In this document: piece after piece, positions 2,199 to 44,059 of the stretch
Layout: each line of letters opens with the position of its first letter
Position numbering within the stretch: position 1 is the first letter of the stretch
Assembly (NCBI GenBank): GCA_013215145.1
Contig: JABSRP010000053.1
Coordinates: 1-44,081, forward strand
Direction of reading: 5' to 3'
DNA from: Pseudobacteriovorax sp.
GTDB lineage: Bacteria; Bdellovibrionota_B; Oligoflexia; Oligoflexales; Oligoflexaceae
Length of the DNA: 44,081 nt
Made by a program: the position numbers and the translations under genes
Notes under the pieces: model-generated
What the model saw: the letters and a program-made list of their open reading frames with translations, nothing else
What the model was told of the DNA's origin: nothing
The model's database searches: none

Positions 2199-5100
2199 CT
2201 AACCTGCTTCGTCGAATTGATGTAAGTCAGATTTTGTCTTGGAAACCAAATCGCTGATCTCACCCGATAGTTTTGTAGACCGACCTGCTAGCTGCTTAAC
2301 TTCAGAAGCTACTACAGCAAACCCTTTACCAGCTTCCCCGGCTCGTGCAGCTTCAATGGTTGCATTTAAAGCCAATAGGTTCGTTTGACCTGCTACCTTG
2401 ACAATTGATTTCGAGGATTTTTCGACGTTTTCTAACACGTCGCTGACTATTCTTCGCGACTCGATGATGGCTAAATTTTTTTCCGTTTGATCATTGAAAA
2501 TCCCGATCACATAGGCTAGTTCACCATAACCATCTGGTATAGCCTGCAAGGTTCCTGTTGCATAAACTGTTTCATTATCACCACAGGAAACTTTCAAATC
2601 AATTTTCTGACTTTTGCCTTGAATGGCATGTTCCCATTGTTTCTTATCAAAGACTTGGGAAGCGTTTAAAATGGGTTCTGACATGTGATCGCTAGAGATT
2701 TTGAATGTTTCCTTGGCTAATTGGTTGCTTCTCCTCAGTTTTCCAGAAATATCCCACTCCATAACTAGGCTTGAATTTTCAATAGACTCTATTTTCTTGC
2801 TTGATTCAATCGACAAGTTTTTAGTTGATGAAATATTAGCCTGTATCGAAATAAATCTTTCAACGTCACCGTGCTGGTTTAAAATAGGATTAACAGATAA
2901 TGAAATCCAATAGGCTTCCTTACTTTTAGTGTAATTTAGAATCTCCGTATAGAAAGGTTTTTTATTTTCCAAATTCGCTCTAATATCACTAATTGTATTT
3001 TTATCTGTCAAAGGACCTTGGAGTAGAGTTCCAGGCTTATTGCCCTTAGCATCCTCGAAAGTATAACCGGTTAATTTAGTAAAACCAGGATTGACATATT
3101 CAATCTGACCTTTTGGATCTGTTATCACAACACTATTGTCCGTCTCGTTGGCTACGAGCGATAGAATTTCAATTTTCTCTCTCTCTAAAATTTGCTGTGT
3201 TATGTCAACAGCATATTTTACAACTTTGAATGGCTTGCCAGAGGCGTCGTTTATTGGATTATAGGTTGCTTGAATCCAGACCTTTTTTCCATGATTTCCA
3301 ACGCGTTCATATTCCCCCTCTTGGAAATGACCCTCCTTTAGATTATTCCAAAACTCTCTATATTCTCTTGAATTTGCATAATCAGGAGTCGCAAAGATTC
3401 TATGATGCTTGCCTTTGATTTCATCTAGTCTGTACCCCATACAAGCTAAAAAGTTTTCATTGGCATCAAGTATATTTCCCTCGAGGTCAAATTGGATCAC
3501 AGCTTGGGATTTTCCTATCGCTTCAATCTGTCCCTCATAATCAGCACTTTTTAACTTATCATTGGTAATATCTGTTGCGTATTTAACAACTTTAAAGGGT
3601 TTACCTGATGGGTCACAAATAGGATTGTATGTGGCTCGAATCCAAACGCTTTCGCCATTTTTTCTAACCCTTTCAAATTCACCTTCGTGGTAATGCCCAG
3701 TTTTCAATTTTTCCCAAAATTCTTTATATTTCGTAGAATTTGCATAATCTGCTTTAGCAAAGATTTTGTGATGACGTCCTTTAATCTCACCTAATTGGTA
3801 ACCCATGCAAGTTAGAAAATTGTCATTTGCTTCAAGTATATTTCCTTCGAGGTCAAATTGGATCACAGCTTGGGATTTTCCTATCGCTTCAATCTGTCCC
3901 TCATAATCAGCACTTTTTAACTTATCATTGGTAATATCTGTTGCGTATTTAACAACTTTAAAGGGTTTACCTGATGGGTCACAAATAGGATTGTATGTGG
4001 CTCGAATCCAAACGCTTTCGCCATTTTTTCTAACCCTTTCAAATTCACCTTCGTGGTAATGCCCAGTTTTCAATTTTTCCCAAAATTCTTTATATTTCGT
4101 AGAATTTGCATAATCTGCTTTAGCAAAGATTTTGTGATGACGTCCTTTAATCTCACCTAATTGGTAACCCATGCAAGTTAGAAAATTGTCATTTGCTTCA
4201 AGTATATTTCCTTCGAGGTCAAATTGGATCACAGCTTGGGATTTTCCTATCGCTTCAATCTGTCCCTCATAATCAGCACTTTTTAACTTATCATTGGTAA
4301 TATCTGTTGCGTATTTAACAACTTTAAAGGGTTTACCTGATGGGTCACAAATAGGATTGTATGTGGCTCGAATCCAAACGCTTTCGCCATTTTTTCTAAC
4401 CCTTTCAAATTCACCTTCGTGGTAATGCCCAGTTTTCAATTTTTCCCAAAATTCTTTATATTTCGTAGAATTTGCATAATCTGCTTTAGCAAAGATTTTG
4501 TGATGACGTCCTTTAATCTCACCTAATTGGTAACCCATGCAAGTTAGAAAATTGTCATTTGCTTCAAGTATATTTCCTTCGAGGTCAAATTGGATCACAG
4601 CTTGGGATTTTCCTATCGCTTCAATCTGTCCCTCATAATCAGCACTTTTTAACTTATCATTGGTAATATCTGTTGCGTATTTAACAACTTTAAAGGGTTT
4701 ACCTGATGGGTCACAAATAGGATTGTATGTGGCTCGAATCCAAACGCTTTCGCCATTTTTTCTAACCCTTTCAAATTCACCTTCGTGGTAATGCCCAGTT
4801 TTCAATTTTTCCCAAAATTCTTTATATTTCCTAGAGTTTGCATAATCCGCTTTAGCAAAGATTTTGTGATGACGTCCTTTAATCTCATCTAATTGGTAAC
4901 CCATGCAAGTTAAAAAATTGTCATTTGCTTCAAGTATATTGCCTTCGAGATCAAATTGAATCACAGCCTGAGATTTTCCAATGGCCTCGATTTGCCCTTC
5001 GTTGTCTGCCCGACGTTTTTTTTCCTCGGTGATATCAGTCGCATATTTTACTACCTTGTAAGGCTTTCCGGAGGCATCTTTGATGGGGTTATAGGTTGCC

Positions 5101-5756
5101 TGTATCCAAATGCTTTCGCCATTTTTACCGACTCGTTCAAATTCTCCTTCGTAATAGGTACCTGATTTGAGATTACGCCAAAAATCTTGATACTCTGGAG
5201 ATCTAGCATAGTCTGGTTTTGCAAAGATTTTATGATGCTTACCCTTTATTTCGTCAATTGTAAAACCTACGGTCTTCAAAAAATTCTCGTTTGCATCCAA
5301 GATAATTCCATCAAGATTAAATTGAATCACTGCCTGAGACTTTCCTATAGCCTGGATTTGTCCCTCGAAATCGGCATTTTGCATCTTGTTTTTTGTAATG
5401 TCAGTAGCAATTTTTACAATCTTGTAAGGCTTCCCCAAATCGTCAAAAATAGGGTTATAACTAGCTCGAATCCAAACGCTTTGACCACTTTTTGAAAAGC
5501 GCTCAAACTCTCCTTCTTGGTATTTCCCGCTTTTTAGAATTTTCCAGAAGTTTTTATATTCTTCTGAATTGCGGTATTTTTCATTAACAAACATACTATG
5601 ATGCTTCCCTTTTATCTCCTCTAAGCTGAATTCAACAGTTGTCAAAAAGTTCTCGTTCGCATCTAAAATATTCCCATCTAAATCAAACTGGATGACAGCA
5701 GACGATTTGATAACTGCTTCAAGAATTGCCTTAATATCATTTGAATTAAAATCCAT
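2199..5756 (-). CDS. Soluble chemoreceptor-like protein of 1185 aa. It has at least 9 tandem PAS domains, 7 of them a 122-aa unit, followed by a short MCP signalling-domain fragment
   Basis: A 122-aa PAS unit (…[22 protein letters not shown]…GRHHKIF…[28 protein letters not shown]) recurs 7 times and is followed by 2 further PAS-like modules. The C-terminus contains the canonical MCP hairpin-tip motif [35 protein letters not shown]. No hydrophobic TM segment is present. Confidence 0.85.
3481..4945. repeat. 366-bp tandem repeat array inside the PAS-MCP gene. Four units begin at 3481, 3847, 4213 and 4579, and 3481-~4827 is 100% identical between units
   Basis: Direct comparison of the four stretches shows identical nucleotides over about 1.35 kb. 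The flanking units, down to ~3230 and up to ~5700, are progressively diverged copies of the same 366-bp/122-aa PAS module. Confidence 0.9.
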
Positions 5757-9899: not shown

Positions 9900-10934
9900 T
9901 TAGTTTCTACTGAAGAACTCATCAAAGACCTCATCACTCCAGTAAGCGATGCCTTCGGCTTGATTGGGGGAGTGCCATGATTCTTCGGATTTATGGCTTG
10001 GATTGACACAAGCTACGGCTAGAAATAGTAGGCAGAGTGAGGCAAGTAAAAGACTTCGGTTGTTTGGACGTGTGTCTTTGAACGCTTCGATACGACTTCT
10101 CAGTTCACTTTTTCCCAGCTGGTGCCCTACAGTCAGCGGATTTAGCGAACCTTGTAAAAGGAGCTGGCAGTTTAATAGGGTAGCAGCGTATTTCTTACGT
10201 ATTGTTTTGCCCAAGCAAACCTGTCGATCGCAGCTTATTTCCATGGATTTGTTTAGTTGTTTAGCTAGAAAAATCAAAAATGGAGAGAACCATAAAACAC
10301 ACTTTAGTACTTGCATATAGGCATTGAGCTGAATATCTCTCCGTTTAATATGGACATTCTCATGCTCTAGGACTAATGCTAGCCCTTCGTCATCTAAACT
10401 CTTCGTCAGTATTTGAGGAATGAAAATTCTTGGACTAAAGACTCCGTACGACATGGGAGATAGGTTTGATTTATGGGTGTATACTGGGATCCCCTTAAAC
10501 TCGAATGCGCAGTGGGATGAAGCCTCTAGCTGTCGCATACGATTAAGGGCAAATACTAATTTCATTAGTAAGATGGATAGAATAATCGCATAGATTCCCC
10601 AGACGTAGATAAACATGGAGATTGTTGTCGGTTTCACTTCCCTTGACAATAACTTTGGCTCCATGATCTCTTCCATTGTACTAAAGATTAGTGAAGGATG
10701 ATCCTTATTTGGGGTTCTGAAGGTTGGGGTCACAAAATCTTCTGTATCAGCTATTTGAGATATCTTCGATGTTGGGAAATCAAAACTAGGAATAAAAATC
10801 AGCAGAGGTAATGCTAGTAAACTGATTCTCAAGTAATGAAACAAACCATGGGCCGCTACTCTCCCTCGCAAGAAAAACCAACCTACACAAATGAGAAAGG
10901 GATAGATAAAGGCATAAAGGAAAAAAATCATCAA
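9900..10934 (-). CDS. BlaR1/MecR1-type M56 family membrane metalloprotease signal transducer. It lacks the C-terminal beta-lactam sensor domain
   Basis: N-terminal TM helices are followed by the M56 signature SPMSYGVFSPRIFIP…LVLEHENVHIKRRD (an HExxH zinc motif) and MEISCDRQV. After a final TM segment only about 40 residues remain. Confidence 0.85.
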   Translation of the reverse strand: MMIFFLYAFIYPFLICVGWFFLRGRVAAHGLFHYLRISLLALPLLIFIPSFDFPTSKISQIADTEDFVTPTFRTPNKDHPSLIFSTMEEIMEPKLLSREVKPTTISMFIYVWGIYAIILSILLMKLVFALNRMRQLEASSHCAFEFKGIPVYTHKSNLSPMSYGVFSPRIFIPQILTKSLDDEGLALVLEHENVHIKRRDIQLNAYMQVLKCVLWFSPFLIFLAKQLNKSMEISCDRQVCLGKTIRKKYAATLLNCQLLLQGSLNPLTVGHQLGKSELRSRIEAFKDTRPNNRSLLLASLCLLFLAVACVNPSHKSEESWHSPNQAEGIAYWSDEVFDEFFSRN

Positions 10935-11302
10935 TCTAACTCACCTAGAAGTTGACGAATGCGCTCGATTTCATCCGATGAAAGCTTCTGATTCTCGATC
11001 AAATTCAATGCAAGATCAAAAGCCTTCCCCTCATAGACATCTTCAATGAGATTTTCGGCTACAGAATTTTGATAGCTAAGACGGTCAATGCGAGCGGTAA
11101 AACGATGCTCTTTCTCTGAATTGTCCTTTTTTAGATAGTTTTTCTTGACAAGATTATTCACTGCAGTTTGTAGCGAAGTATAGGCAGGAGGCGGATCTAG
11201 CATATTCAAGATATCACGAACACTGGCTCGATCATGATCCCAAAAGAGCTTCATAATTTTTAATTCATGGTCCGTAAGATTTTTATTTATGGGGCGACTC
11301 AT
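10931..11302 (-). CDS. BlaI/MecI/CopY-family winged-helix transcriptional repressor
   Basis: The protein is 123 aa. Its N-terminus LTDHELKIMKLFWDHDRASVRDILNML…YTSLQTAVNNLVKKNYL fits the penicillinase-repressor fold. Its stop overlaps the start of the M56 gene by 4 nt. Confidence 0.8.
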   Translation of the reverse strand: MSRPINKNLTDHELKIMKLFWDHDRASVRDILNMLDPPPAYTSLQTAVNNLVKKNYLKKDNSEKEHRFTARIDRLSYQNSVAENLIEDVYEGKAFDLALNLIENQKLSSDEIERIRQLLGELD

Positions 11303-11344
11303 AGTGAACTCCCTCCGATGCTATATGCTAAAGAAAGCCGGATA

Positions 11345-12208
11345 TTACCGGCTGAAAATTTCGATACTTCCTGCTCCTGTGGAAATATCCACGGGAACCT
11401 TGCCGTTTTTAAGCTTATAGCTTAGGCGTCGATCTACCGACTTGAGGAGCTTTTTGTCTCGATCAAATAATAGAACCTTACCAAACCCAGTAGACGCATC
11501 GAGGGATACGTCAGCAGATGATGGCAACTGAAGCACGATATTACCCCCACCTGTGCGTAAACGTATACCTTTTTTGATAGGTTGATCCATGGAAACATTC
11601 ATAGAACCGCCGCCAGTTTCGGCTTTCAATTCACCAGCCACCTTTTCTAGGTTCATAGAACCGCCGTTGGTAGTGAATTTAAGCTTCCCTTCTGAACGCT
11701 CAGCATGAATAGAGCCTCCATTGGTCTCAACGTCGATATCTCCTGAGACGTCTTCCAGATGGAGCGAGCCACCACGAGACTTAACCACTGCTCTGCCTGA
11801 AATTTTTTCCATGTGAATAGAACCCCCGCGGGTCTCTCCTGCGACATTACCCCTTATATTTTCGATATGCAAAGATCCGCCGGCAGTTCTAATTTTGACT
11901 CCGGAGATTTTGGGGACCTCAAGTTGGTAGCGAACATTACCATTGCCGCCTTTGATCCTGGCACGAATGATGAGTTCTTTGCCTTTAGTGGAACTTTCCA
12001 GCGTAACATTGTCATCTGATACTCCCCAACCAGATACAGTTAATTTAACGTCTTTTCGGTCGCTTCCCTCAATAAAAATTGGTCCAGCATTGGTTTCAAA
12101 GTCAATCACTGGATTGACGGAAACCTTGAAAGTCCTTTCGATATCTTTGCTCAAAGCATTATCTGCGGCAAAAGTAATTAGTACAAAGCTCATCAGTAAT
12201 TTCAGCAT
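11345..12208 (-). CDS. Secreted DUF4097 (toast-rack, putative-adhesin-like) beta-helical repeat protein
   Basis: Signal peptide. A repeated GGS(I/L/M)H(M/L/A)E…(I/V)SG unit (GGSLHIENIRG, GGSIHMEKISG, GGSLHLEDVSG, GGSIHAERSEG, GGSMNLEKVAG) is typical of DUF4097. It is the first gene of the operon shared with the BlaI and M56 genes. Confidence 0.65.
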   Translation of the reverse strand: MLKLLMSFVLITFAADNALSKDIERTFKVSVNPVIDFETNAGPIFIEGSDRKDVKLTVSGWGVSDDNVTLESSTKGKELIIRARIKGGNGNVRYQLEVPKISGVKIRTAGGSLHIENIRGNVAGETRGGSIHMEKISGRAVVKSRGGSLHLEDVSGDIDVETNGGSIHAERSEGKLKFTTNGGSMNLEKVAGELKAETGGGSMNVSMDQPIKKGIRLRTGGGNIVLQLPSSADVSLDASTGFGKVLLFDRDKKLLKSVDRRLSYKLKNGKVPVDISTGAGSIEIFSR

Positions 12209-29776: not shown

Positions 29777-31405
29777 ATGAGGTCTTATTTACCATCTGGG
29801 ATATTTTTCACCGTCCTAGTTAGTCTGACTCTATCTTGCGGGAGTAAAGATGAGGAAGACGGAGATGTTTCTGCTACGAGTGGAACAGAGTTTAACGAAG
29901 ACGGTTTTCTGGACAGTGGCGTTGGAGTCCTTCGGATCGGAGTCAGTGCCGCCTCCGGAGAAACCGCCACAAGTGGACTTAGAGTTGCCGAACCCACAGA
30001 TCCAAACGAAAAATACTATTTTGGCAAGCGCTCTCTGGGTGGCGGAGCCGATGAACTGACGATTTATATAACAAAAATGGTGCTCAAAGACAGCAGTGCC
30101 AGCGAAGAGGTTCCCATTTTTGTCAACCCAGATGGTAAACCGCTTAGGATTGTGGGAAATCGGGTAGATATGAGCAACTTTTTTACTGAAATTGGATGCT
30201 ATAGCGAGGCAGGAGATGTCTTACCAGATCCATGTCCGTGCGGTGTCGATGTCGACGGTAATATTATCGAACAGGTTGATGCGTTAAATGATGATGGATC
30301 TGTCGCAACTGATCCCGAAACGGGTGAAGTCCTAAAAGCTTGTCCGCTAACGGAAACATCGGACACTGGCGAGCCACCAGTGGTTGAGAAGAATCCTATT
30401 GCGTTTATTAACGTGTCCCAGGTCGGTAGTTTCGATACCTTGAAGGTTAGTTATCGGAATGATGCTTTGGCATCGGGTTGCGTACAGGGGTACGTCCAAA
30501 GAGCTGACGTCCCTGATTCCGACGAAAATGCTCACAATGTGGTTGAGTGGGAGCGTTACTGTACCAAGTCGGCCCAAGGTTCCGATAAAACGGAAGCTGG
30601 TGAAAGCTTTGCAAGATCAACCTTTGCTGACGCGACAGGTACCGCCGAGGGAGAGCTTCAAACCATATATCTGACAGCACAATACACTGGAGAAAATCCT
30701 ACCGCGAATGCAGATTATGAGATCACTGGCGGAATCACTATCACTGAAGATGATTCTAATAGCCCACAGATCACCATGCTTATCGATGTCGGTAGTCTTT
30801 TGCGATTTCATATCGATGACAATATCGAGGGACGTAAGCATAACGAGTTTGAGACATGGAACGGAGCCTTTTTCTATGTAAGACAATTTAGTGCCCAAAA
30901 CTTTGTATTTGTCGGCGAAGCAGGCTCGATTCGTGGGTATACCTTGGAGTTAAATCTAAAAGAACAGAATGAAGATCTCTTGAATACTCCATCGGGAACC
31001 GCAGCTAATCCGTCGGCCTATGATGAGTGCGTTCTTACCAACAACGACTGCTCCTTTGTGGGTAAGGGAAGAATCTCTCTTATTTATGACAAAGACGGCA
31101 GCCCTTTGCTGTTTAACCTGACGACAATCGTTGGTAATTCCTGGGATTTTGCTACGCAAAGCCGAGAGGGAGCCGAAGCTGGACAGGCTATCTCCGCCGA
31201 TGAAAGCCTTGCTGGAACGTATAAGCTTGAGTATGAAAATACAGACGGACAAGGAGATGTGTCGGATACTAAGATATATCAACTGGGTCTTGATGTGGAT
31301 GTTGGTTCAAGTTTTACCTCCTATGGCTATCGATTTATTCAGACTTCTGCCGGAGAAACACGGATGTATAACTGGGGTAAGCTAGTAGGTACGAGAGAGT
31401 ACTAG
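29777..31405 (+). CDS. Large lipoprotein of unknown function (542 aa)
   Basis: Signal peptide with the lipobox LTLSCG. The mature part is Gly/Asp/Thr-rich. No known domain. Confidence 0.6.
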   Translation: MRSYLPSGIFFTVLVSLTLSCGSKDEEDGDVSATSGTEFNEDGFLDSGVGVLRIGVSAASGETATSGLRVAEPTDPNEKYYFGKRSLGGGADELTIYITKMVLKDSSASEEVPIFVNPDGKPLRIVGNRVDMSNFFTEIGCYSEAGDVLPDPCPCGVDVDGNIIEQVDALNDDGSVATDPETGEVLKACPLTETSDTGEPPVVEKNPIAFINVSQVGSFDTLKVSYRNDALASGCVQGYVQRADVPDSDENAHNVVEWERYCTKSAQGSDKTEAGESFARSTFADATGTAEGELQTIYLTAQYTGENPTANADYEITGGITITEDDSNSPQITMLIDVGSLLRFHIDDNIEGRKHNEFETWNGAFFYVRQFSAQNFVFVGEAGSIRGYTLELNLKEQNEDLLNTPSGTAANPSAYDECVLTNNDCSFVGKGRISLIYDKDGSPLLFNLTTIVGNSWDFATQSREGAEAGQAISADESLAGTYKLEYENTDGQGDVSDTKIYQLGLDVDVGSSFTSYGYRFIQTSAGETRMYNWGKLVGTREY

Positions 31406-31950: not shown

Positions 31951-33054
31951 ATGATGATTCGAGCAAAGCACTTATTACTTGTAGTAGGAATTTTAGGAAC
32001 AGCATGTAAATCAGAAAAACAAGATAAAACAAATTTTGATGCTAATGCTGCTGATGTAGTGGCTGAGGTTCAAGATCCAAATGCCGTTGATCCGGCCGTT
32101 GAAGATGTTAGCGAATCCGTTCAAGAGGCTGATGCTATCATCCCAGGACAGATAGAACTTGTAGATGATTTTAGTCCATTCTCCGAACAAATTGCTGCCA
32201 CGGTTGCACAAGTGTCTGCAGATATAGATGGGAAAGATGTCGCCTACACTCTTGAATTTGATGAAGATGAGTTGGACGACGATGAAGATAACCTTTTCAG
32301 CCTATACTTTACGAGTTTAGTCCCATTCGCAATGACAACTACCGATCAACTAGCGGTGACAGCAAGTACCTGTATGAAGGATGCGCTAGATCCTACGGCG
32401 AAAGCAAAAGTAAACGGAGGATTAGTCTACATACAGCAGGAAGAGACGTCCTATCCTGAGGAATGCACCCAAATTGTGATTAAAGAAACTTTAGATAAAC
32501 TAGGCGAAGTTGCTGGTAATCAGATTATAGAAGTCGAAGTCAAACGAAGCATGCAGAAATTTATCGAGTGTGAAAACGCTATTGAAGTTATACCCGGAAT
32601 GAAGGTAGCTGAGATTGATGGGCTTTGCGGTCGCGTCAAAAACGAGACTCAGGTCTTTACTAGGCAGGTAAATCGTTTTGAAGTAACTCCTGAGGGTGTC
32701 ATCATCCAATCTCTCAGTTCCGATACATATACCCAAGTTATTGTGGGTACTGCAGATAATACATGTAAGAAAGCCTTTGTTGAGGATAGTACTAACATCG
32801 TAGATTGCAAGACGATCGAAACTATCGAGCGCGATGGTGTTATCACAGAAAAGATCATCAGAAATTGGGCCAATATAGAGGGTGTGTCTCAAGTTCTTCT
32901 ACCACAGTCAGGTATTTTAACTATGGAAGTTAACAATGTGACTGCAGAAATCGAGTTTGTTGGTGATGATTCCTACGATTTAGAGGTGGAAGGCGATGGT
33001 TTCGATGAAGAATTAGAAGTTTCCAATGAATTCCTTGCCGAATTAAACGGCTAG
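31951..33054 (+). CDS. Acidic lipoprotein of unknown function (367 aa)
   Basis: Signal peptide with the lipobox LGTAC. The content is strongly acidic. Confidence 0.6.
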   Translation: MMIRAKHLLLVVGILGTACKSEKQDKTNFDANAADVVAEVQDPNAVDPAVEDVSESVQEADAIIPGQIELVDDFSPFSEQIAATVAQVSADIDGKDVAYTLEFDEDELDDDEDNLFSLYFTSLVPFAMTTTDQLAVTASTCMKDALDPTAKAKVNGGLVYIQQEETSYPEECTQIVIKETLDKLGEVAGNQIIEVEVKRSMQKFIECENAIEVIPGMKVAEIDGLCGRVKNETQVFTRQVNRFEVTPEGVIIQSLSSDTYTQVIVGTADNTCKKAFVEDSTNIVDCKTIETIERDGVITEKIIRNWANIEGVSQVLLPQSGILTMEVNNVTAEIEFVGDDSYDLEVEGDGFDEELEVSNEFLAELNG

Positions 33055-33513: not shown

Positions 33514-34122
33514 GTGGACTTTTTGAGTTTAGCGTTTCGCTTACCAAGCTTGCCTTTCTCAATTCTGTTTGGACTTTCGATTCTCTATTGGGTGGGTACC
33601 ATAGTCGGGTTTTTCGACTTAGATGGTTTGGACCTAGATTTCGAGATAGGCGACGTTTCAGCTTTGGGTAAGGTCTTAGACCTATTTGGAATTGGTAGAG
33701 TTCCAAGCTCTATTTGGCTGAGCTTTTTTGCCTTAAGCGCCCTAATCTTATCTATAAACCTTAATCACCTTGCCGATTCAGTGATTCCCACCTGGACCGA
33801 TAGCATACGGCTAGTGGTATTTGGTATTCCGGTAGTGATTGTTTCCTCGTTGTTGGCAAGGCTACTGTCATCGCCTTTTGCTCCTCTCTTTCGAGGATTA
33901 AATCGACAAAAGGTGTTTTCGATTGAAGGAAAGACTGTACATGTCACTTCGAGCTCGGTGGACCAGAGTTTTGGAATAGCAGAGTTTCGTGATGGCGGCT
34001 CGCCCATTATATTAGATGTCCGCAGCATTGATGAGGAAACCCTTGTGAAGGATGATTTGGCTGTTGTGGTACGCCATGACAAAAAAAATAACACCTATTA
34101 CATTCATAAACATATTACTTAG
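33514..34122 (+). CDS. YqiJ/NfeD-like inner-membrane protein (the short NfeD form with a C-terminal OB-fold). It is the flotillin partner
   Basis: N-terminal TM helices, a FGIGRVP motif, and a C-terminal beta-rich segment (GSPIILDVRSIDEETLVKDDLAVVV). Both match the E. coli YqiJ layout. GTG start with AAGGAGAG 5 nt upstream. It is followed 16 nt later by a flotillin gene, as in yqiJ-yqiK. Confidence 0.65.
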   Translation: MDFLSLAFRLPSLPFSILFGLSILYWVGTIVGFFDLDGLDLDFEIGDVSALGKVLDLFGIGRVPSSIWLSFFALSALILSINLNHLADSVIPTWTDSIRLVVFGIPVVIVSSLLARLLSSPFAPLFRGLNRQKVFSIEGKTVHVTSSSVDQSFGIAEFRDGGSPIILDVRSIDEETLVKDDLAVVVRHDKKNNTYYIHKHIT

Positions 34123-34137: not shown

Positions 34138-36132
34138 ATGGAAAATGTTTTTATTAATTCAGGAATTGTCATTTTTGCAAGTGTCAGCTTGTTTATCTTG
34201 GGAATCGTATTTTTCATAACGCGTTTCCTGAGAAAGGTTGAACCAGGAAAAGCTCTGATTATTATTAATCCGTTCAAAAAGAATATGGCTGTTAGCTTCA
34301 CAGGAGGCGTCGTAATCCCTGTCATCCATCGTGCTGAGGTTATGGATATTTCGACCAAACAAGTTGTGGTTGAAAGGCGTGGAAAAGATGGTCTGATATG
34401 CAAAGATAATATTAGAGCTGATATTTCAGTTAACTTCTATATCAGAGTCAATAATACAGTAGAAGACGTGCGCAACGTTGCTCAAAGTATTGGAGTTGAT
34501 CGAGCCTCCCAGAAAGAAACCTTGGATGAACTATTTCAGGCCAAATTTTCGGAAGCTTTGAAAACAGTAGGCAAGAAGACCGATTTCGAAGAGCTTTTTC
34601 AGGAACGCGCTTTGTTCAAAGAAAAAATTGTTCAGGAGATAGGGCAAAACCTCAATGGCTACAGTCTGGAAGATACAGCCATTGACTATCTCGAACAAAC
34701 AGGTCTCGAATTTTTTGAGCCAAACAACATTCAAGATGCAGCCGGTATAAAAAAGATTATTGATATCACATTAGAGTTGAAAGAGCAGAAAGAAAAGCGT
34801 GAAACGGAAGCAACGGAGCGCATTCTTGAGCTAGACAGACAGAGGGCTGAGGCTAAGGCGCGTCAGGAAGCCGAAATCGCCATTCTCCAGGCGAGAGAAA
34901 ATGCTGAGCAGGAAAAAATCATCCAAGAAGAAAGGCAAAAAGCCGAACTTGCAAAGATCCGCGTTGACGAGGAATTACGAATTGCAGCGGAAAATATGGA
35001 ACGTCAGGTTGAAGTTGCTAAAAAAAGTAAGGAACGCACGGTTGCTGTTGAGACAGAGCGAGTTGAAAAAGAACGAGATCTTGAAAAGACTGACCGCGAA
35101 AAACTAGTTGCGCTTGCAGATATCGAAAAAGTGAGAGCGGTTGAAGATCAGAAGAAAACGATTCAAGAAATCATTAGACAGCGTGTGGCACTAGAACGAT
35201 CAGTGGCTGAGGAAGAAGAAAAGACTAAGGATACGGTAGCATTGGCTACTGCTAACAGAAACAAAACAGTACAATTAACAGCGGCGGAGGCCAATGCTGA
35301 AGAAAAGTTAGTAACCGAAATTAAATCTGCTGAAGCCAAAGAAAAAGCAGCAAAATATGCAGCTAATGAAATGGCAATACGCGCGGAAGCTGAGCTTGCT
35401 ACATCTAATCAGATCGCCGACGCAAAAAAAATCCTAGCCGAAGGGATCATTGCCGAATCTGCTGCGGTAGGTTTGTCTGAGGTGAAAGTAAAAGAAGCTG
35501 ATGCTGATGCTGTTCGGAAGCTGGGAGAGGCCGAAGCTCATGCCTTGACCTTCAAGTCTAGAGCTGAAGCCGAGGCCATTCGGGAAAAAGGAACCTCTGA
35601 AGCGCAAATTATTGCTGATAAGGCCAAGGCTATGCATGATCTAGACGAGGTGGGAAGAGAGCACGAAGAGTTTAAAGCCAGGCTTAATGTCCAGCAAGAA
35701 CTGGCTCTTGAAAAATTGACTGTTAGTCGCGATATAGCAAAAAATAATGCTCAGGTGATTAGTAAGGCTCTAGAAAATGCAAAGATTGACATCGTAGGAG
35801 GTGACCAAATATTCTTCGATAAACTAATTTCGGCAGTGAGTAATAGCAAGTCAATTGAAGCTCGTTTTCCAGAAGATGGAGTCTTAAATCAGGTCAAGGA
35901 TGTTTTTTTATCTGATGGAAACGGTGAGTTGATGACCAAGCTAAGAGGAGTCATTGATACTCTTGGTGTTGGGTCAAAAGCAATGAAAGATTATAGTATC
36001 GCGGGACTACTTAATAAATTGCATAGTGAGACAAAGGATTCGTCGATTCAGGGTGTTATATCTGGACTTCTTAAAGATGCTGAGTCCGCTGGGATCAATG
36101 ATCAGTCTTCGCAAATATTGTTTAATAAATAG
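34138..36132 (+). CDS. Flotillin-family SPFH/band-7 protein (664 aa, YqiK-like)
   Basis: An N-terminal TM helix is followed by an SPFH domain and a long Glu/Ala/Lys/Arg-rich coiled-coil (the flotillin-type EA repeat region). It is tightly linked to the NfeD-like gene upstream. Confidence 0.8.
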   Translation: MENVFINSGIVIFASVSLFILGIVFFITRFLRKVEPGKALIIINPFKKNMAVSFTGGVVIPVIHRAEVMDISTKQVVVERRGKDGLICKDNIRADISVNFYIRVNNTVEDVRNVAQSIGVDRASQKETLDELFQAKFSEALKTVGKKTDFEELFQERALFKEKIVQEIGQNLNGYSLEDTAIDYLEQTGLEFFEPNNIQDAAGIKKIIDITLELKEQKEKRETEATERILELDRQRAEAKARQEAEIAILQARENAEQEKIIQEERQKAELAKIRVDEELRIAAENMERQVEVAKKSKERTVAVETERVEKERDLEKTDREKLVALADIEKVRAVEDQKKTIQEIIRQRVALERSVAEEEEKTKDTVALATANRNKTVQLTAAEANAEEKLVTEIKSAEAKEKAAKYAANEMAIRAEAELATSNQIADAKKILAEGIIAESAAVGLSEVKVKEADADAVRKLGEAEAHALTFKSRAEAEAIREKGTSEAQIIADKAKAMHDLDEVGREHEEFKARLNVQQELALEKLTVSRDIAKNNAQVISKALENAKIDIVGGDQIFFDKLISAVSNSKSIEARFPEDGVLNQVKDVFLSDGNGELMTKLRGVIDTLGVGSKAMKDYSIAGLLNKLHSETKDSSIQGVISGLLKDAESAGINDQSSQILFNK

Positions 36133-36140
36133 GTATAGTA

Positions 36141-39100
36141 GTGACTATCAGTAATACGCTTACAGCTACGGGCGGCAACTTTGATATCATTAGAAAAAGA
36201 CTGATAACACAAAGCAAAGCCCTTGAGACGATACTAACGGATCTCAATCTAAGACGTAAAGATACCTTTGGAACTATCGAAAACAAGATTCTTTCGTCGG
36301 ATCGAGTTAATACACCTATCCCCTGTGTGGCTCGCGATATGGTAGCTCAGGGGGATACGTTACTTATGGCGTTTGAGGTCCATTTTGGATTAAAATCTTC
36401 GGTAAATGTTTCTGATATTTTTAGAACCTATCAATATATAGACGATAGATTTCAAGAGGTCGAAGCGACACTTATTGATGATGAACAGTTCTATCGCGAT
36501 CTTTCCGATTTGACTAAATTCTACAAAGATTGCCGATTTGCTAGATTTTTGAAGAAAAAAACATTTTTGTACATGATCTTTCATGTGGGGCGCGGTAGAG
36601 ATAAAAAAGTCTTCAAATGGGCCATTAATCCCGATGATAAACTAACTTATGTTGATAATAGATCAGATTTTGAAGTCGCTGATCCACCCCAATATAGTTT
36701 TGATTGGGAACGTATCACGCGCGATGATCATGTGTATATTGGTGAACCTCATATTAACGTTTCAGATCGACTGTTTGTTGACTGCTTGGGTGGATCGCTT
36801 ACGATAAGGATCGAGGATAACACCGAAATCGGTCATACGATTCTTCAAGAATCTGTTGATGAAACGGATCAAACCTTAGACGATGCGGTTATCGAATACG
36901 CCGTATTGGATCATATTATTATTCTCAAGATACTTCCCTACCGAGAGCAAGATGCCCGATACTTTATATATAACGATAAAAACGAAACCATTAAAAAGGT
37001 AGAGGATCTAAAAAACTGTGGAATCGCACTGCCTGAAAACGATGGACTGATGTTTCCTAACGGTTATTATCTAAGGAATGGTACTTTCCGTTCGTTTTCG
37101 CTAGAACGAAGCGATATGAAGTTCCAACAGTGTTTAGAAAGCCTGAATGGAGAAGATCTACTTTATGCCTTTCATGACCACGAGATGGGCGAATATATCT
37201 TAATCCAATATAACCGTATTGAAAAAACGGTAGGTCAACCTATTACCTGTCATGGATATGCTATATTTGGTAACGGAAAGATGGTGGTTTTTGGGGCTTC
37301 GCAAGAACCTATGAAGAGTCATAGTATTCAAACATGGAGCACATCGTTTATCGAAGATGCTAGCGTCTTTGAAGCTTCTGATGAATCTTCTATGGCGCGC
37401 ATAGGTAATAAAACATTGGTTGATGGTTTTTCTGACCTGTGGGAGATAACCAATTTAGCTAAAAAAGAAGAAAATACCTTAGCGGAATATAATGAATTAT
37501 TGAGGTTCATCCGAGAGTCTCAGGATAGGCATTATTGGTTTAGTGAAGAAGAGTTTTCCCAAATAAAACAAAAATTAGCTGATCTTCTGTCCACTGCTAC
37601 TTCTGCCGTCGATGAATTTGAAAAGGTGATTAGCGCAAAGAAAAAAAGTCATAAAGATTTTCAAGAGGCTGAGATCAATGTACAAAATCTTATTGATGCC
37701 ATAAAGATAGAGGGATTCGAAACTATTGATCCCTTCATTGAAAAGATCACCGATCTTAGATTGCAATTGGGTGAGGTTCTCTCACTGGCGGAAAATCAGT
37801 TTGCAAATGCCGAAGGGTTGGAAGTTCTTGAGGGACGACTTAAAGCAGAGCTGGATCAGCTAACGAGCTCTTGTAGTCGATTTCTTATGAGCCAAAAAGC
37901 GGTTCAGCCATTTCATGATCGTTTGGAGCAGATCTTATTGTCTATGGAGTCCGTAGAACGCTCAAAAGATCTAGAAAATGTTGATGCTGAAATCGCGAAA
38001 TATACTCTTCACCTAAATACATTAACGGATCTTATAAACGATTTGGCTACTTCCGATCCGAAGGATTCGGTTCAAATCATTGAACAATTATCTCAACTTA
38101 TTGCCGGGTCAAATCAAGTTAAAGCAAAATTCAAATCTATTCGAACCAACCTGCTTCACGAGGAGTTAGGAACCGAGTACCAAGCGCAAATGACTCTTCT
38201 GTCGCAATCGGTTTCTAGTTACCTGGAGCAAGTTGAATCTCTAGAAGATTGTGATAACTTTCTTGATCGAGTTCTCGGCAATCTAGAATCACTAGAGGTT
38301 AAGTTTTCCGAATTTCCAGACTATCTAAATGATCTTGCTGAAAAACGTGATGAATATTTTTCCGTGTTTCAGTCAAAAAGGGTTCAAATACAAGAAGCCA
38401 GCAATAAAAAAATAATGGCAATGATGGACTCTGGAGCGCGTCTTTTGAAAAGTATAAAAAAGCGCTCGATCCACCTCGAAACGTGTCAACAGATTTCTAC
38501 TTTTTTCGTCACCGACAGTATGGTTACCAGATTACAAACAGTTGCTGATGAGATGGCTAAACTAGGTGAGACGGTGAAAGCTGAGGATTTAAGGGGGCAG
38601 CTTAAAAAAATTAGGCAAGATGCCTTAAGGCAGCTGAAAGATAAACAGGATTTATTTCAACTTGGTGAAAATATCATAACTTTGGGTCAGCATAGTTTTC
38701 AAGTGAGTGACCTGTCGGTGGATCTCTCCATTATTGAGCGTAGCGATGGACCCAATATTCATATATCTAGTACTGATTTTTTTCAGGCTATTCCAGAAGG
38801 AAGTTTGAACTCTTCAAAAACTCTGTCTCAACAAACAGTCGTCAGTGAGACAAAAAAAGTATATCGATCGGTTTATCTCGCTTATTATTATGTGCAGAGT
38901 CTATATGCTGGCGAGAGGCCTTTAAATTTAAGTCAATTGCTCTCTAACTCAAGTAGTCTAGACGGTGTAGAGGATGAAGCCCTCGAAAAAGATATCCTTT
39001 CTTTTATGCAGAGTAGGTTAGACGAAGGCTATGAAAAAGGCGTACACGATAGAGATGGCTATAGAATTATCGGTCGTATACTTCCTATTCTCGCTCATGA

Positions 39101-41078
39101 CCCTGTACAGAGATTTCATCCTGTAACACGAGCGCTAGGATTTTTATTCTCTAAATATGAGGAAAATGACAGTTTAAGCGTCATTCTTAAAAAAATCCAG
39201 TCTTGGTCTAAAATACAAAAACAAAATCTCGCTCGTAATCCAAAAAACGACTATATTGAAGAACTTCGTTGCGAAATCAAAAACTTTCTTTCGGCATCTA
39301 ATTTGGATGATTATGTAGGCTATGATCATAAAGTAGCTCACTACCTAGCACATCAATTTTTGCTACAGGAAGATCACCGGGACCACTATTTTGCTAAAGA
39401 GTCCTACGAATTATATAATGAGTTTACCGAGTGGATCAAGCAAGGTGATCTGAAGGATAAAATCCTTTCACTGGTGGATGGGGTTGATCACTTAGGTGAT
39501 AAAATTGCGATATTATTTGATTGGTTGCAACAATTTCAAAAGACATTTAACAGTGGAAAAGACGACTTTGTACTGGAATCAGTGATTATAGCTTTGGAAT
39601 TACAATTTACGGCAGCAGATAATCAAAATTTCCAGATGAAAAGGCTAGTCAACAGTAGCATATTTAGTGTAGATGGACTCATTGGAACTCACGAAAACCT
39701 TGATCAAGGAAAACTTAATACTTATGTATTTGAATTATTTTCTCAGGTGGAAACCTATTTAGAAGATGGAAGAGACGCGTTTCTAAACTTCCAGATCGAA
39801 AAGCAAAATTTAATCAAACAATATCGGCAATCGTTTAAACTTGATCAGCTGCAACCGAAAATTCTTGGATCGTTTGTTCGCAATCAGTTAATTCAGGAAT
39901 CATACCTGCCAAAAATTGGTGAAAACTTTGCAAAACAAATCGGAAGCTATGGAAATGATAAGCGTGTTGATCTGATGGGTCTGCTCCTTTTGATCTCACC
40001 CCCAGGCTACGGGAAGACCACATTAATGGAATATGTGGCTCAGAGGCTGGGTCTGATATTTTTAAAAATTAACGGCCCAGCGATTGGTCACAGTGTAACA
40101 TCTTTGGACCCACAGGAGGCACCAAATGCGACGGCTCGGCTAGAAATTGAGCGTCTTAACTTTGGTTTCGAACTTGGGAATAATGTTATGATTTATATCG
40201 ATGATATCCAACACTGCCACTCTGAGTTTCTTCAAAAATTTATTTCATTATGTGATGGCCAGAGGAAAATCGAGGGAGTTTGGCAAGGTAGTCCGAAGAC
40301 CTATGACTTTCGAGGTAAGCGTATTGCAGTGGTCATGGCAGGAAACCCATATACCGAGACGGGTGAGGTCTTTCGTATCCCAGATATGTTATCAAACCGA
40401 GCCGATATATATAATTTAGGTGATATGCTAAGTGGTTCGGAGGATGCGTTTCTACGATCTTATATAGAAAACTGCCTTACCTCCCACCCTGTACTTGCGA
40501 AATTGACAAATATTGACCAAACAGAGACTCAAAAGCTCATCGAACTGACGGAAGAAAATCATGAGGACTTAGGGACTCTTGTAAAACGTTCCGTGTCTGA
40601 AGGTCATCAAGACTTAGCCAATATGCTAGTGAAGTGCGTATTCGTACGAAATATTGTTCAGACTGTTAATCAAAGCTACATAGCCTCGGCAGCACAGGAT
40701 GACTCATTTCGGACCGAGCCAGGATTTCTGTTGCAAGGTAGTTATCGGGATATGAATAAAATCATGGGAGGGATTCAACCTGCTATGAATGAGTCGGAAC
40801 TTTTGGATCGTGTGATCGATCATTATCGTTTTGAGTCGCAGTTGCTTACCAGTTCTGCAGAGTTCAATTTTTTACGATTCCTTGAACTCATCGATCGCTT
40901 GGACGATCGAGAGAAAGTCAGAATCGAAGAGATACGTGGCGAGTTTAGAAAAACTCAACGTCTATCTTCTGCAGGCAAAGATGGAATAGGGAATATTATA
41001 GGCCAATTGGATCAATTTAACGTAAAATTTGATGAACTAGTTAACGTCTATCGCAGTCGGATAAAACAACATGACTGA
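36141..41078 (+). CDS. Giant 1645-aa protein with a C-terminal MoxR/AAA_5-type AAA+ ATPase module. The N-terminal ~1270 residues have no recognisable domains
   Basis: Walker A is LLLISPPGYGKTTLMEY (aa ~1285). Walker B is VMIYIDDIQH. Sensor-1 is VVMAGNPY. The central region is long and helical, coiled-coil-like. GTG start 8 nt after the flotillin stop. Confidence 0.7.
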   Translation: MTISNTLTATGGNFDIIRKRLITQSKALETILTDLNLRRKDTFGTIENKILSSDRVNTPIPCVARDMVAQGDTLLMAFEVHFGLKSSVNVSDIFRTYQYIDDRFQEVEATLIDDEQFYRDLSDLTKFYKDCRFARFLKKKTFLYMIFHVGRGRDKKVFKWAINPDDKLTYVDNRSDFEVADPPQYSFDWERITRDDHVYIGEPHINVSDRLFVDCLGGSLTIRIEDNTEIGHTILQESVDETDQTLDDAVIEYAVLDHIIILKILPYREQDARYFIYNDKNETIKKVEDLKNCGIALPENDGLMFPNGYYLRNGTFRSFSLERSDMKFQQCLESLNGEDLLYAFHDHEMGEYILIQYNRIEKTVGQPITCHGYAIFGNGKMVVFGASQEPMKSHSIQTWSTSFIEDASVFEASDESSMARIGNKTLVDGFSDLWEITNLAKKEENTLAEYNELLRFIRESQDRHYWFSEEEFSQIKQKLADLLSTATSAVDEFEKVISAKKKSHKDFQEAEINVQNLIDAIKIEGFETIDPFIEKITDLRLQLGEVLSLAENQFANAEGLEVLEGRLKAELDQLTSSCSRFLMSQKAVQPFHDRLEQILLSMESVERSKDLENVDAEIAKYTLHLNTLTDLINDLATSDPKDSVQIIEQLSQLIAGSNQVKAKFKSIRTNLLHEELGTEYQAQMTLLSQSVSSYLEQVESLEDCDNFLDRVLGNLESLEVKFSEFPDYLNDLAEKRDEYFSVFQSKRVQIQEASNKKIMAMMDSGARLLKSIKKRSIHLETCQQISTFFVTDSMVTRLQTVADEMAKLGETVKAEDLRGQLKKIRQDALRQLKDKQDLFQLGENIITLGQHSFQVSDLSVDLSIIERSDGPNIHISSTDFFQAIPEGSLNSSKTLSQQTVVSETKKVYRSVYLAYYYVQSLYAGERPLNLSQLLSNSSSLDGVEDEALEKDILSFMQSRLDEGYEKGVHDRDGYRIIGRILPILAHDPVQRFHPVTRALGFLFSKYEENDSLSVILKKIQSWSKIQKQNLARNPKNDYIEELRCEIKNFLSASNLDDYVGYDHKVAHYLAHQFLLQEDHRDHYFAKESYELYNEFTEWIKQGDLKDKILSLVDGVDHLGDKIAILFDWLQQFQKTFNSGKDDFVLESVIIALELQFTAADNQNFQMKRLVNSSIFSVDGLIGTHENLDQGKLNTYVFELFSQVETYLEDGRDAFLNFQIEKQNLIKQYRQSFKLDQLQPKILGSFVRNQLIQESYLPKIGENFAKQIGSYGNDKRVDLMGLLLLISPPGYGKTTLMEYVAQRLGLIFLKINGPAIGHSVTSLDPQEAPNATARLEIERLNFGFELGNNVMIYIDDIQHCHSEFLQKFISLCDGQRKIEGVWQGSPKTYDFRGKRIAVVMAGNPYTETGEVFRIPDMLSNRADIYNLGDMLSGSEDAFLRSYIENCLTSHPVLAKLTNIDQTETQKLIELTEENHEDLGTLVKRSVSEGHQDLANMLVKCVFVRNIVQTVNQSYIASAAQDDSFRTEPGFLLQGSYRDMNKIMGGIQPAMNESELLDRVIDHYRFESQLLTSSAEFNFLRFLELIDRLDDREKVRIEEIRGEFRKTQRLSSAGKDGIGNIIGQLDQFNVKFDELVNVYRSRIKQHD

Positions 41079-41826
41079 ACATAACGAGCCCTTCTCCGTC
41101 GTCGAGACACTGAAAATTCTGCTATTACGCAAAGAATTTATTGTTTCAACGGCTCTTTTGGGTTTTTGTCTCAGCTCTGTTCTAGTATTCGGAGAATCGG
41201 CTTTTTTGAGCTTTGCCTTAGTCTCTGTTTTTTTATCTACTGCAATGATTGCAATTTTGAATCTGAAATTTCGTAGAGATATTCTTCTAGGTCGTGCCAT
41301 TGTAGATAAAAGTAGGCTGGCCATAGAGCAGGAAAAAGAGTCATCAATCTACAATAAGATCATCGATGAATTGGAAACTTTTGAGTTGACGGCAAAGATG
41401 ATACGAAAGTCTGTCAAGATAGAGTCTCAGGCACGATCTCAACGTTCCCATTTGCTTAGCTGTTTGGAGAAGAACTTAGTTAAGGGTGAATTAACCTACT
41501 ATCGGTACCTTTCAGCTGCAGATGATGTTTTTGATCACATCACTCATAACCAAGAACAGCTCAAACGATACTATGAGCAGCTGGCAGACCTAGTTCGAGA
41601 TAAAAGTACCGACTTAGGTACGCAACTAGTTCAGCCTATATTCCATGAGATTTCCTTACTTCACAGTAGTTGTGATGAGAGTATCTTAGCTTTATCTCAT
41701 CTCATTGTTTCGCTGGAAAAGATGAATACAGGAAAGGATGAGTATGAAGTTTCGCTGAAGTTGGAAAGGCTCCGAGAGCTTGCAAACCAAGCACAACGAT
41801 ATGATAAAAAAGATCAGAGTTTCTAA
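41071..41826 (+). CDS. Membrane protein of 251 aa with two N-terminal TM helices and a C-terminal coiled-coil. It is translationally coupled to the giant ATPase gene
   Basis: The ATG at 41071 overlaps the upstream stop by 8 nt. Two hydrophobic helices span about aa 25-75. The remainder is helical with heptad-like repeats. Confidence 0.6.
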   Translation: MTEHNEPFSVVETLKILLLRKEFIVSTALLGFCLSSVLVFGESAFLSFALVSVFLSTAMIAILNLKFRRDILLGRAIVDKSRLAIEQEKESSIYNKIIDELETFELTAKMIRKSVKIESQARSQRSHLLSCLEKNLVKGELTYYRYLSAADDVFDHITHNQEQLKRYYEQLADLVRDKSTDLGTQLVQPIFHEISLLHSSCDESILALSHLIVSLEKMNTGKDEYEVSLKLERLRELANQAQRYDKKDQSF

Positions 41827-41987: not shown

Positions 41988-42437
41988 ATGGCTAAATATA
42001 TCGTAATATTGCTTCTTTTACTTACATTTGAGGTTTCAGCTTCTGAGACTAATCATTTTTGCGGAAAGCTGATTTATGTGGCAACTGCTAGTGACTCCAG
42101 GTCCGACTGGGTCAGCTCTTTGACTCTCGTAAACGATCGGATAGTCGATAATGTTGATACCGAAGAGAATGAGACTTTTTTAAAGGTGACCGACGACCTT
42201 GCCATTCAATCCTTAGAGAATCGACTAGATCTCGATTTCTATTCCTATGGATTTACATCACAGCTATTTTCCGAAAATCCTAAGTCTATCGCAGCCGAAA
42301 ACCTTTTTTTCTGTTTAGATGGTTTCGAGAAGCGAGCGTGGCGAGGTTCTTGGACCGGGTCGTCAATAGAAAAAATTAGAATATGGCGCGATTTTATATT
42401 TGTGGATGAACTTAACTTGATAGATGAATCAAGGTAA
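41988..42437 (+). CDS. Secreted hypothetical protein (149 aa)
   Basis: Signal peptide MAKYIVILLLLLTFEVSASE. GAGAGGAGA RBS. Confidence 0.55.
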   Translation: MAKYIVILLLLLTFEVSASETNHFCGKLIYVATASDSRSDWVSSLTLVNDRIVDNVDTEENETFLKVTDDLAIQSLENRLDLDFYSYGFTSQLFSENPKSIAAENLFFCLDGFEKRAWRGSWTGSSIEKIRIWRDFIFVDELNLIDESR

Positions 42438-43171: not shown

Positions 43172-44059
43172 ATGCCCCGTAAAATCAAGATTCATCAGGT
43201 GCCATTTGGTATGCCAATATCCATATATAAGCGATCATTTTCTATGCTTCTGTCAAATTTTTTGGTACTTGGATTGACTGGCTTCGGTCTTATGATTTTC
43301 TTAACCGGACTCTCCCTCCTAGGTCCCTTGGCCTTGATCGGAATGATGATTGCTCCGTTTTTATATCTAGGGTTTCTTAAGTTATGTCGTGCGATTGAAG
43401 ATGGATCGGATCTAAGTTCAGATACGTTTTTCTCAGTATTTAGCCAATGGAAGCCGATTTTAGGTATTTCCTTGATTCAGTTCGTGCTCTATTTAGTCGT
43501 TGGTGCGATCTTTATAGCCATATTTTTTACAGGAGCAATGGGAGACATTTTTCCGCTAAATATGTTTACCGAGATGATGTCAAACCCAGATGTCTTGACA
43601 GGAAAGGTAGATGAAGCGGAGATGCAATCACTGGTAGAAAAACACTTAGAGCAGATGCCTGAACCGGATGTTGATGCTATAATTGGTTCTGTAATCAAGT
43701 CTATGGCGTTTTTACTTCCTGTTTCGATCATCCAGTGTTTGCTAATTCTAGGGACTCTGTTTTTAGGTGGTCAGCTGATTACTCAAGATGAATCGAGCTT
43801 TTCGGAAGGGATGAAAGCTGGTCTAATGGGTATTATCAAAAATATTCCATTTTTGATTTCGTTAGTGTTCTTTAGTTTTGTTTTTTCACTTTTAGCCTTT
43901 ATCATTACTCTTCCCATCACGATTTTCACCTTTGGGATTGGTACTTTGTTGGTTATGCCGATCTATATGACCATTATAGGCTGTGTCATATACTTTACTT
44001 ACAAAGTGTATTGCCAACCCGGAAACCCAACTTCCCGCCAATCTCTTGACATAGATTAA
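43172..44059 (+). CDS. Polytopic inner-membrane protein of unknown function (295 aa)
   Basis: 6 or more hydrophobic helices. RBS GAGGT. No domain recognised. Confidence 0.55.
   Translation: MPRKIKIHQVPFGMPISIYKRSFSMLLSNFLVLGLTGFGLMIFLTGLSLLGPLALIGMMIAPFLYLGFLKLCRAIEDGSDLSSDTFFSVFSQWKPILGISLIQFVLYLVVGAIFIAIFFTGAMGDIFPLNMFTEMMSNPDVLTGKVDEAEMQSLVEKHLEQMPEPDVDAIIGSVIKSMAFLLPVSIIQCLLILGTLFLGGQLITQDESSFSEGMKAGLMGIIKNIPFLISLVFFSFVFSLLAFIITLPITIFTFGIGTLLVMPIYMTIIGCVIYFTYKVYCQPGNPTSRQSLDID

Follow-up and report, generated by a model that had tools for sequence, protein, structure and literature searches.

The 44,081-nucleotide (nt) stretch of Pseudobacteriovorax sp. DNA analysed here (assembly GCA_013215145.1, contig JABSRP010000053.1, positions 1 to 44,081 of the forward strand; the window hereafter) carries a tightly packed, same-strand operon, preceded by ~460 nt of non-coding DNA, whose third gene encodes a very large ATPase of the AAA+ type and lies directly behind a flotillin gene. 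Transmembrane (TM) segments are predicted in all three operon partners of the ATPase, and the ATPase itself, in which no TM or hydrophobic segment was found, is predicted to be soluble. The genes of the operon, with lengths in amino acids (aa), are:

33514..34122 (+): YqiJ/YuaF (NfeD-like) protein, first gene of the operon, 202 aa, 3 predicted TM segments, YqiJ_N match with E 4.2e-5
34138..36132 (+): flotillin-like protein, 664 aa, 1 N-terminal TM segment, SPFH/Band_7 match (E 1e-7), long charged coiled coil
36141..41078 (+): propeller/rod/AAA+ ATPase, third gene, 1645 aa, predicted soluble
41071..41826 (+): fourth-gene 2TM protein, 251 aa, 2 TM segments and a helical remainder, start overlapping the ATPase stop by 8 nt

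The open reading frame (ORF) of the ATPase begins with a GTG codon, 8 nt past the stop codon of the flotillin gene. This start was accepted because the N-termini of homologues line up with it in the alignment, and initiation at the first in-frame Met, at about residue 67, would delete conserved residues. An earlier reading of the letters alone (the sequence-only reading) had claimed this 1645-aa, GTG-initiated frame as a gene, and it is real: the 341 homologues found in a search of 5.8 billion proteins are far beyond chance, and the 120 of them that were listed are full-length, with E = 0, nearly all aligned over >97% of the query and 36-46% identical to it. The DUF3686, DUF7902 and AAA families are present in nearly all of these 120 proteins, which bear, where any name is given, the names 'DNA repair ATPase', 'AAA family ATPase' or 'MoxR-like ATPase'. 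The window itself has a match in an ENA metagenome scaffold. The nearest relative is only 46% identical, and the window protein is, as judged by sequence, a divergent member of the DUF3686-DUF7902-AAA+ family, that carries the NCBI label 'DNA repair ATPase'.

The sequence-only reading had left about 1270 residues of the protein unassigned, yet two Pfam families lie within them: DUF3686 (PF12458, 'ATPase involved in DNA repair') covers aa 28-465 with E 5.3e-146 and 487 bits over profile positions 2-448 of 448, and DUF7902 (PF25472) covers aa 586-668. To the letter, then, the N-terminus comes from a known family, though not from BREX, Druantia or condensin, that is, the families which the earlier reading had named; all three were considered as candidates and rejected, as the ATPase matched no component of them. 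Two AlphaFold2 models, built from 56-sequence alignments, cover aa 1-880 (mean predicted local distance difference test score, pLDDT, 84.8) and aa 841-1645 (mean pLDDT 85.8). Taken with the Pfam matches and Foldseek fold searches, they give the following order of parts:

aa 12-43 (+): N-terminal helix (AlphaFold2)
aa ~46-405, nt 36276..37355 (+): predicted beta-propeller of ~29 strands and roughly 7 blades, core of DUF3686 (AlphaFold2 and Foldseek)
aa ~406-840, nt 37356..38660 (+): predicted rod of long helices in a three-helix-bundle or spectrin-like arrangement, including DUF7902
aa 586-668, nt 37896-38144 (+): DUF7902 (PF25472), inside the helical rod (Pfam, E 1.5e-14)
aa 845-880 (+): small beta-hairpin domain, first part of nt 38673..39635 (AlphaFold2)
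aa ~890-1165 (+): poorly conserved helical domain, remainder of nt 38673..39635 (AlphaFold2)
aa 1196-1267 (+): two long helices (AlphaFold2)
aa ~1275-1430, nt 39963..40430 (+): AAA+ alpha/beta core (Pfam, AlphaFold2)
aa 1431-1645, nt 40431..41075 (+): helical lid and C-terminal region, holding the invariant QGSYR (AlphaFold2)

The N-terminal two-thirds had been taken for helical, but the region of aa ~46-405 is all-beta in the model, with pLDDT mostly 85-94, and helices prevail only in aa ~406-840 and 890-1165. When the propeller region was compared with the PDB by Foldseek, the top matches were mainly to proteins of propeller fold; the 50 hits listed have E 2.6e-7 to ~2e-4 and include the Elp1 WD40 domain, Kelch KLHDC3, CyRPA, sialidases, paraoxonase, prolyl oligopeptidase and the clathrin N-terminal domain. 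On the predicted structure, DUF3686 is thus a divergent, roughly seven-bladed beta-propeller, and no particular protein stands out as its close relative. Among its invariant residues in the homologue alignment are H204, E225, N227, T228, D248, N336-G-E-D339, H394 and W399, and the polar ones among them (aa ~201-400, window positions 36741-37340) are reminiscent of a ligand- or metal-binding pocket. A cryptic nuclease or protease was looked for in residues 1-450 by domain and fold searches, and none was found. Searched alone, the propeller domain has 556 cluster representatives; it is N-terminal in the listed full-length ones (~1600-1900 aa), and most of the shorter matches look like fragments. 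In a few homologues (P0007, P0035, P0069) the propeller is preceded by extra TPR, ankyrin or HEAT repeats, which suggests protein-protein docking modules added in some lineages. The rod (aa ~406-840) is spectrin-like by fold search; no fold assignment was obtained for the hairpin of aa 845-880 or the helical domain of aa ~890-1165, and conservation goes down to 0.35-0.43 across aa 900-1200.

The best-conserved stretch of the protein is aa 1250-1450 (conservation 0.83-0.87), where PF00004 (AAA) and PF07728 (AAA_5) match aa 1282-1409 with scores just over the Pfam thresholds. The AAA_5/MoxR-like ATPase that the sequence-only reading placed at about aa 1270-1450 stands, as a module of about aa 1275-1430, with the correction that its Walker A Lys is K1292 and not K1291; the sensor-1 motif MAGNP was also located. 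The elements of the module are:

S1286-PPGYGKT-1293, nt 39996-40019 (+): Walker A, with Lys K1292
I1351-YIDDIQH-1358, nt 40191-40214 (+): Walker B, with D1354 and D1355
aa ~1376-1389 (+): predicted pre-sensor-1 beta-hairpin, between Walker B and sensor-1 (AlphaFold2, pLDDT ~89-95)
MAGNP, aa 1399-1403, nt 40335-40349 (+): sensor-1, with N1402
R1420, nt 40392-40406 (+): candidate Arg finger, at the end of the helix preceding strand 5
QGSYR, aa 1532-1536 (+): candidate sensor-2 Arg, invariant, with a putative sensor-2 role

In alignments of 56-61 sequences there is little or no variation in the P-loop or in the motifs YxDDIQH, VxMAGNPYTE, PDMLxNRADxYNLG and QGSYR. The window protein has all of the family motifs (SPPGYGKT, DDIQH, MAGNPYTE and NRAD). 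Its Walker A had been called degenerate on account of Ser replacing the first Gly. All 120 listed homologues, however, carry xxSPPGYGKT, at 36-46% identity, and the substitution is a family signature, not decay, since it is shared by every one of them. The conservation of the GKT and DD motifs in orthologues has thus held. Walker B was described as intact, which is correct as far as conservation goes, but in the aligned family members it has the invariant pair D1354-D1355 (VMIYIDDIQH) instead of the canonical hhhhDE of AAA+ proteins. A similar box, LIDDIQF, is found in DnaA, that is a slow, partner-regulated ATPase, and by this resemblance the DD Walker B makes a regulated, slow or partner-stimulated hydrolysis plausible. 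As to the candidate Arg finger, R1420 occupies the usual position before strand 5 in the model.

By fold search the AAA+ core and lid are structurally nearest to the MoxR members CbbQ and NorQ, within a MoxR/dynein/midasin-like group of AAA+ proteins. The hairpin that is predicted to separate Walker B from sensor-1 recalls the pre-sensor-1-hairpin clades. While the modelled core and lid resemble those of the MoxR chaperones (CbbQ, NorQ, RavA) and of dynein/midasin modules, several features set the family apart from MoxR proteins: the DD of Walker B in place of DE; the helix-2 position (aa 1312-1329), at which a conserved loop, NGPAxGHxVTSLDPxxAPN, is predicted with no hairpin; and size, since MoxR proteins have ~270-500 aa and the window protein has 1645, of which ~1270 are N-terminal residues. 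Similarity in sequence to solved AAA+ proteins is confined to the P-loop: sequence and profile searches of the PDB matched only ~35-45 residues around it (p97, RuvB and relatives, best E ~1e-3), too little to place the clade.

The family is widespread. Relatives were found in at least 584 species-representative genomes: each GTDB species was represented by one genome, and of the first 600 stretches that fitted a sequence pattern 584 were confirmed. They occur in Verrucomicrobiota, Bacteroidota, Planctomycetota, Myxococcota, Gammaproteobacteria (Pseudomonas, Stenotrophomonas, Lysobacter, Providencia), Clostridia and Actinomycetes, as well as on megaplasmids and chromids, including pQBR103. Gene context was compared in 83 related loci, of which the 65 with at least 3.2 kb of upstream DNA were used for counting flotillin. 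In 62 of these 65, the ATPase gene is immediately preceded, on the same strand, by that of a flotillin orthologue, which has a median identity of 43% and is about as conserved as the ATPase; the relevance of flotillin and the MoxR-like affinity, both put forward by the sequence-only reading, were upheld. When neighbouring ORFs were clustered, NfeD-like proteins were found in 45 loci, PspA in 18, DUF2170/YjfI in 10, XRE-type helix-turn-helix (HTH) regulators in 9, PLD/HKD hydrolases in 9, CesT_Tir_1 in 7 and rhomboid proteases in 5, and the NfeD-like gene precedes that of flotillin in every locus in which the two were called. Pfam matches among 150 same-strand neighbours were to PspA (14), YqiJ_N (6), CesT_Tir_1 (5), DUF2170 (5), PLDc_2 (4) and DUF4178 (3). 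On pQBR103 the order is PspA, rhomboid, DUF2491, DUF350, DUF1190, glutathionylspermidine synthase (GspS), a hypothetical protein in the NfeD position, SPFH and 'DNA repair ATPase'.

The slot downstream of the ATPase differs between loci and is often taken by unrelated genes. In Phytomonospora, Providencia, an Oleiphilaceae bacterium and Limnobaculum (loci L061, L068, L075 and L082) it holds a rhomboid protease gene, which either overlaps the ATPase stop or comes right after it, and on pQBR103 the rhomboid gene adjoins PspA (L084 430-984). In the window the slot is filled by the 251-aa 2TM protein, for which no family was found in Pfam, NCBIfam or PADLOC, no relatives were found by search across the 83 loci, and the one match in a database search was a copy of 99% identity. 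Its kinship with a 255-aa protein, whose gene (L086:4603-5370) takes the equivalent place behind the closest ATPase relative, is shown only by direct pairwise comparison (32% over 130 aa, E 2e-8); a GELTYxRYLSAA motif is common to the two. On this sequence evidence the 2TM protein is a lineage-specific fourth component.

Operons of this kind have been described computationally. Ravi et al. (2024; mSystems, PMC11237479; bioRxiv 2020) report an operon with a CesT/Tir-PspA pair, a band-7/flotillin protein and an ATPase made of beta-propeller, coiled coil and AAA+ module, together with a 3TM YqiJ/YuaF protein and, in some cases, a PLD (HKD) hydrolase. According to these authors the abbreviated operons, which lack PspA, have the wider distribution; sub-membrane dynamics of a chaperone-like, ESCRT-analogous kind are proposed, and a supplementary table contains a Dokdonia example with identical gene order (PMC11237479). 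The pairing of NfeD-type and SPFH genes has itself long been known (PMC2636767). The window operon agrees with those operons in domain order, Pfam families, ATPase motifs and the order YqiJ/NfeD-like protein, flotillin, ATPase. It differs in that no match to PspA_IM30, CesT_Tir_1 or DUF2170 was found among the scanned window ORFs (a few of ~100-150 aa were excluded), and in its translationally coupled 2TM gene, shared only with the nearest relative. It is thus the abbreviated form, without PspA and CesT, of the operon set out in PMC11237479. A rhomboid partner is not mentioned in the operon description accessible from the same source. Literature searches returned nothing relevant on DUF3686, PF12458, DUF7902, or flotillin with DNA repair ATPase or MoxR. 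The sequence-only reading held this gene to be the likeliest new biology of the window, a claim that is weakened by the published description of architecture and operon; the family is known computationally and is not experimentally characterised, and the window locus is a divergent new member of it.

What would such an ATPase do beside a flotillin? It is proposed to be the soluble part of a conserved membrane module, encoded in the order YqiJ/NfeD-like 3TM protein, flotillin (SPFH), ATPase. The favoured reading, to which we would give an even chance, is that this soluble ATPase forms a ring and remodels flotillin/PspA assemblies at the inner membrane. The AAA+ domains would assemble into a ring, as suggested by the invariant candidate Arg finger R1420 and by the hexameric state of the nearest structural relatives. 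The ring would bind and hydrolyse ATP by means of K1292, D1354/D1355 and N1402, and the force would pass through the helical domain and the rod to the N-terminal beta-propeller, which may dock on a membrane-bound partner, i.e., the cytoplasmic assembly of flotillin and NfeD, plus PspA where it is encoded. Flotillin/PspA scaffolds would thereby be assembled, taken apart or turned over at the expense of ATP, presumably in envelope stress. PspA is an ESCRT-III homologue and flotillin an SPFH protein; functional analogues would be Vps4 acting on ESCRT-III, or FtsH housed by HflK/C. The likeness to Vps4 and ESCRT-III is one of functional logic, in that a soluble, putatively ring-forming AAA+ protein is encoded beside membrane-scaffold polymers. 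In HflK/C-FtsH, too, the genes of an SPFH protein and an AAA+ ATPase are linked, and an NfeD-type partner is typical of SPFH operons (PMC2636767).

Several points weigh against this proposal. The MoxR proteins, to which the ATPase is structurally nearest, act as chaperones in maturation and not as polymer disassemblases; the contact of the propeller with flotillin, NfeD or PspA is one that we infer; and the DD of Walker B, rather than DE, does not guarantee robust hydrolysis. Neither PspA nor CesT is encoded among the scanned window ORFs, an adjacent flotillin is missing from 3 of the 65 loci, and the variable downstream genes (PLD, rhomboid, TM proteins) also suit a conflict system. The literature search found no experimental work on any member of the family.

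A bolder version of the same idea, which we put forward tentatively and would not expect to hold in full, is that a homo-oligomeric machine of the MoxR/dynein/midasin clade is the dedicated ATP-dependent factor, missing until now, that assembles or disassembles bacterial flotillin (SPFH) cages, a 'Vps4 for flotillin'. The propeller residues H204, E225, N227, D248, N336, E338, D339 and H394 might then bind the tail of flotillin or a ligand derived from the membrane, helices could act as a lever between this site and the ring, and variable downstream membrane proteins, e.g., the 2TM protein, might tune the machine in each lineage.

The alternative that survives best, although we consider it unlikely, is that the ATPase only docks at the flotillin/NfeD microdomain and there serves other membrane proteins by MoxR-type maturation or extraction, much as FtsH is corralled by HflK/C. 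The affinity of the AAA+ core to the MoxR chaperones CbbQ and NorQ and the linkage of the ATPase genes to flotillin are in keeping with such a role, and the variable membrane-protein neighbours (rhomboid, Peptidase_M50B, 2TM proteins) could be its clients or co-factors. Yet MoxR systems normally engage their clients through a VWA/MIDAS adaptor, and this adaptor is lacking: the sequence-only reading saw no VWA partner, and, in agreement with it, no VWA domain was found in the window operon proteins, in the conserved neighbourhoods of homologues or among the 25 most frequent Pfam families of the 150 same-strand neighbours. Nor do the loci share any conserved candidate client gene besides flotillin, NfeD and PspA.

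A role in conflict or anti-phage defence is improbable in our view. The ATPase would sense infection or membrane damage and trigger a variable downstream effector (PLD/HKD hydrolase, rhomboid or small TM protein), leading to abortive infection. The downstream slot, variable and sometimes translationally coupled, could be so understood, with a rhomboid overlapping the ATPase stop in 4 loci, PLDc_2 in 9 and the 2TM protein in the window, and so could the XRE-type HTH regulator, divergently encoded in 9 loci, mostly of Bacteroidota. The module is also present on megaplasmids and chromids, pQBR103 included, and the flat 36-40% identity across many phyla is compatible with horizontal transfer. However, many of the downstream genes are plainly unrelated housekeeping genes, and the commonest partners belong to envelope stress (PspA, CesT/Tir, YjfI, polyamine genes). 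No operon protein had a significant match in PADLOC-DB v2, where the best were mad8 (E 9e-4, P-loop region) and Cas4b (E 3e-3, the 251-aa protein), each covering a small part of the model. No homologue of the ATPase was present in 50,697 phage records, the neighbours of the operon in the window are ordinary chromosomal genes and not a defence island, and a literature search on flotillin/SPFH and phage defence found no link to the ATPase system.

That the protein is a genuine DNA-repair ATPase, acting on DNA by a coiled coil of SMC/RecN type, is very hard to credit. Apart from the inherited name, it is favoured only by a long helical rod with a superficial likeness to SMC proteins, whereas the head is of the AAA+ and not the ABC/SMC type, no SMC, RecN or ABC match was found in Pfam or NCBIfam, and the conserved partners are membrane proteins. 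Searches of Pfam, NCBIfam, PADLOC and PDB sequences, and by fold, brought up neither a DNA-binding nor a nuclease domain, and the sole matches to a repair family, in NCBIfam, are sub-threshold, P-loop-only ones to RuvB (18 bits against cutoffs near 280-300). No paper backing the name was found by literature search, and the name 'DNA repair ATPase' is unsupported. Equally remote is a pseudo-ATPase or purely structural scaffold, as might be read from a Walker A that begins with Ser and a Walker B with DD, since both variants are fixed family-wide, together with sensor-1 and the candidate Arg finger, in the most conserved region of the protein, and this indicates a working nucleotide site under purifying selection.

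If flotillin remodelling is the function, the ATPase bears on how bacterial flotillin scaffolds assemble, turn over and connect to envelope-stress responses (PspA), being an obvious candidate for the energy-consuming step because it is large, well conserved and almost always beside one flotillin subfamily. The idea is directly testable, as the family is present in tractable genera, i.e., Pseudomonas, Proteus, Providencia, Stenotrophomonas and Myxococcus. The unsupported name matters for annotation, as it is widely propagated. The window copy adds little of its own, namely a divergent member, an abbreviated form of the operon and the lineage-specific 2TM fourth gene.

Elsewhere in the window, two ORFs just upstream of the operon (29777-31405 and 31951-33054, both +), of 542 and 367 aa, belong to no Pfam, NCBIfam or PADLOC family and have no counterpart near ATPase homologues. 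Downstream of it lie a 149-aa protein with a signal-peptide-like N-terminus (41988-42437, +) and a membrane protein (43172-44059, +) that matches the BPSS1780 family of NCBIfam below threshold (E 2.7e-12; 46.4 bits, where the cutoff is 90); neither gene is conserved near the homologues. A methyl-accepting chemotaxis protein of 1185 aa with eight PAS domains is encoded at 2199-5756 (-), where the local guanine-cytosine content, 0.36-0.38, is lower than in the rest of the window. At 9900-12208 (-) three genes stand in a row, for a BlaR1-type M56 sensor peptidase (9900-10934), a BlaI-type repressor (10931-11302) and a Toastrack/DUF4097 protein (11345-12208). Toastrack is highlighted in PMC11237479 as a partner domain of the phage shock protein (PSP) envelope-stress system, so the window may encode in this row another module of envelope stress.

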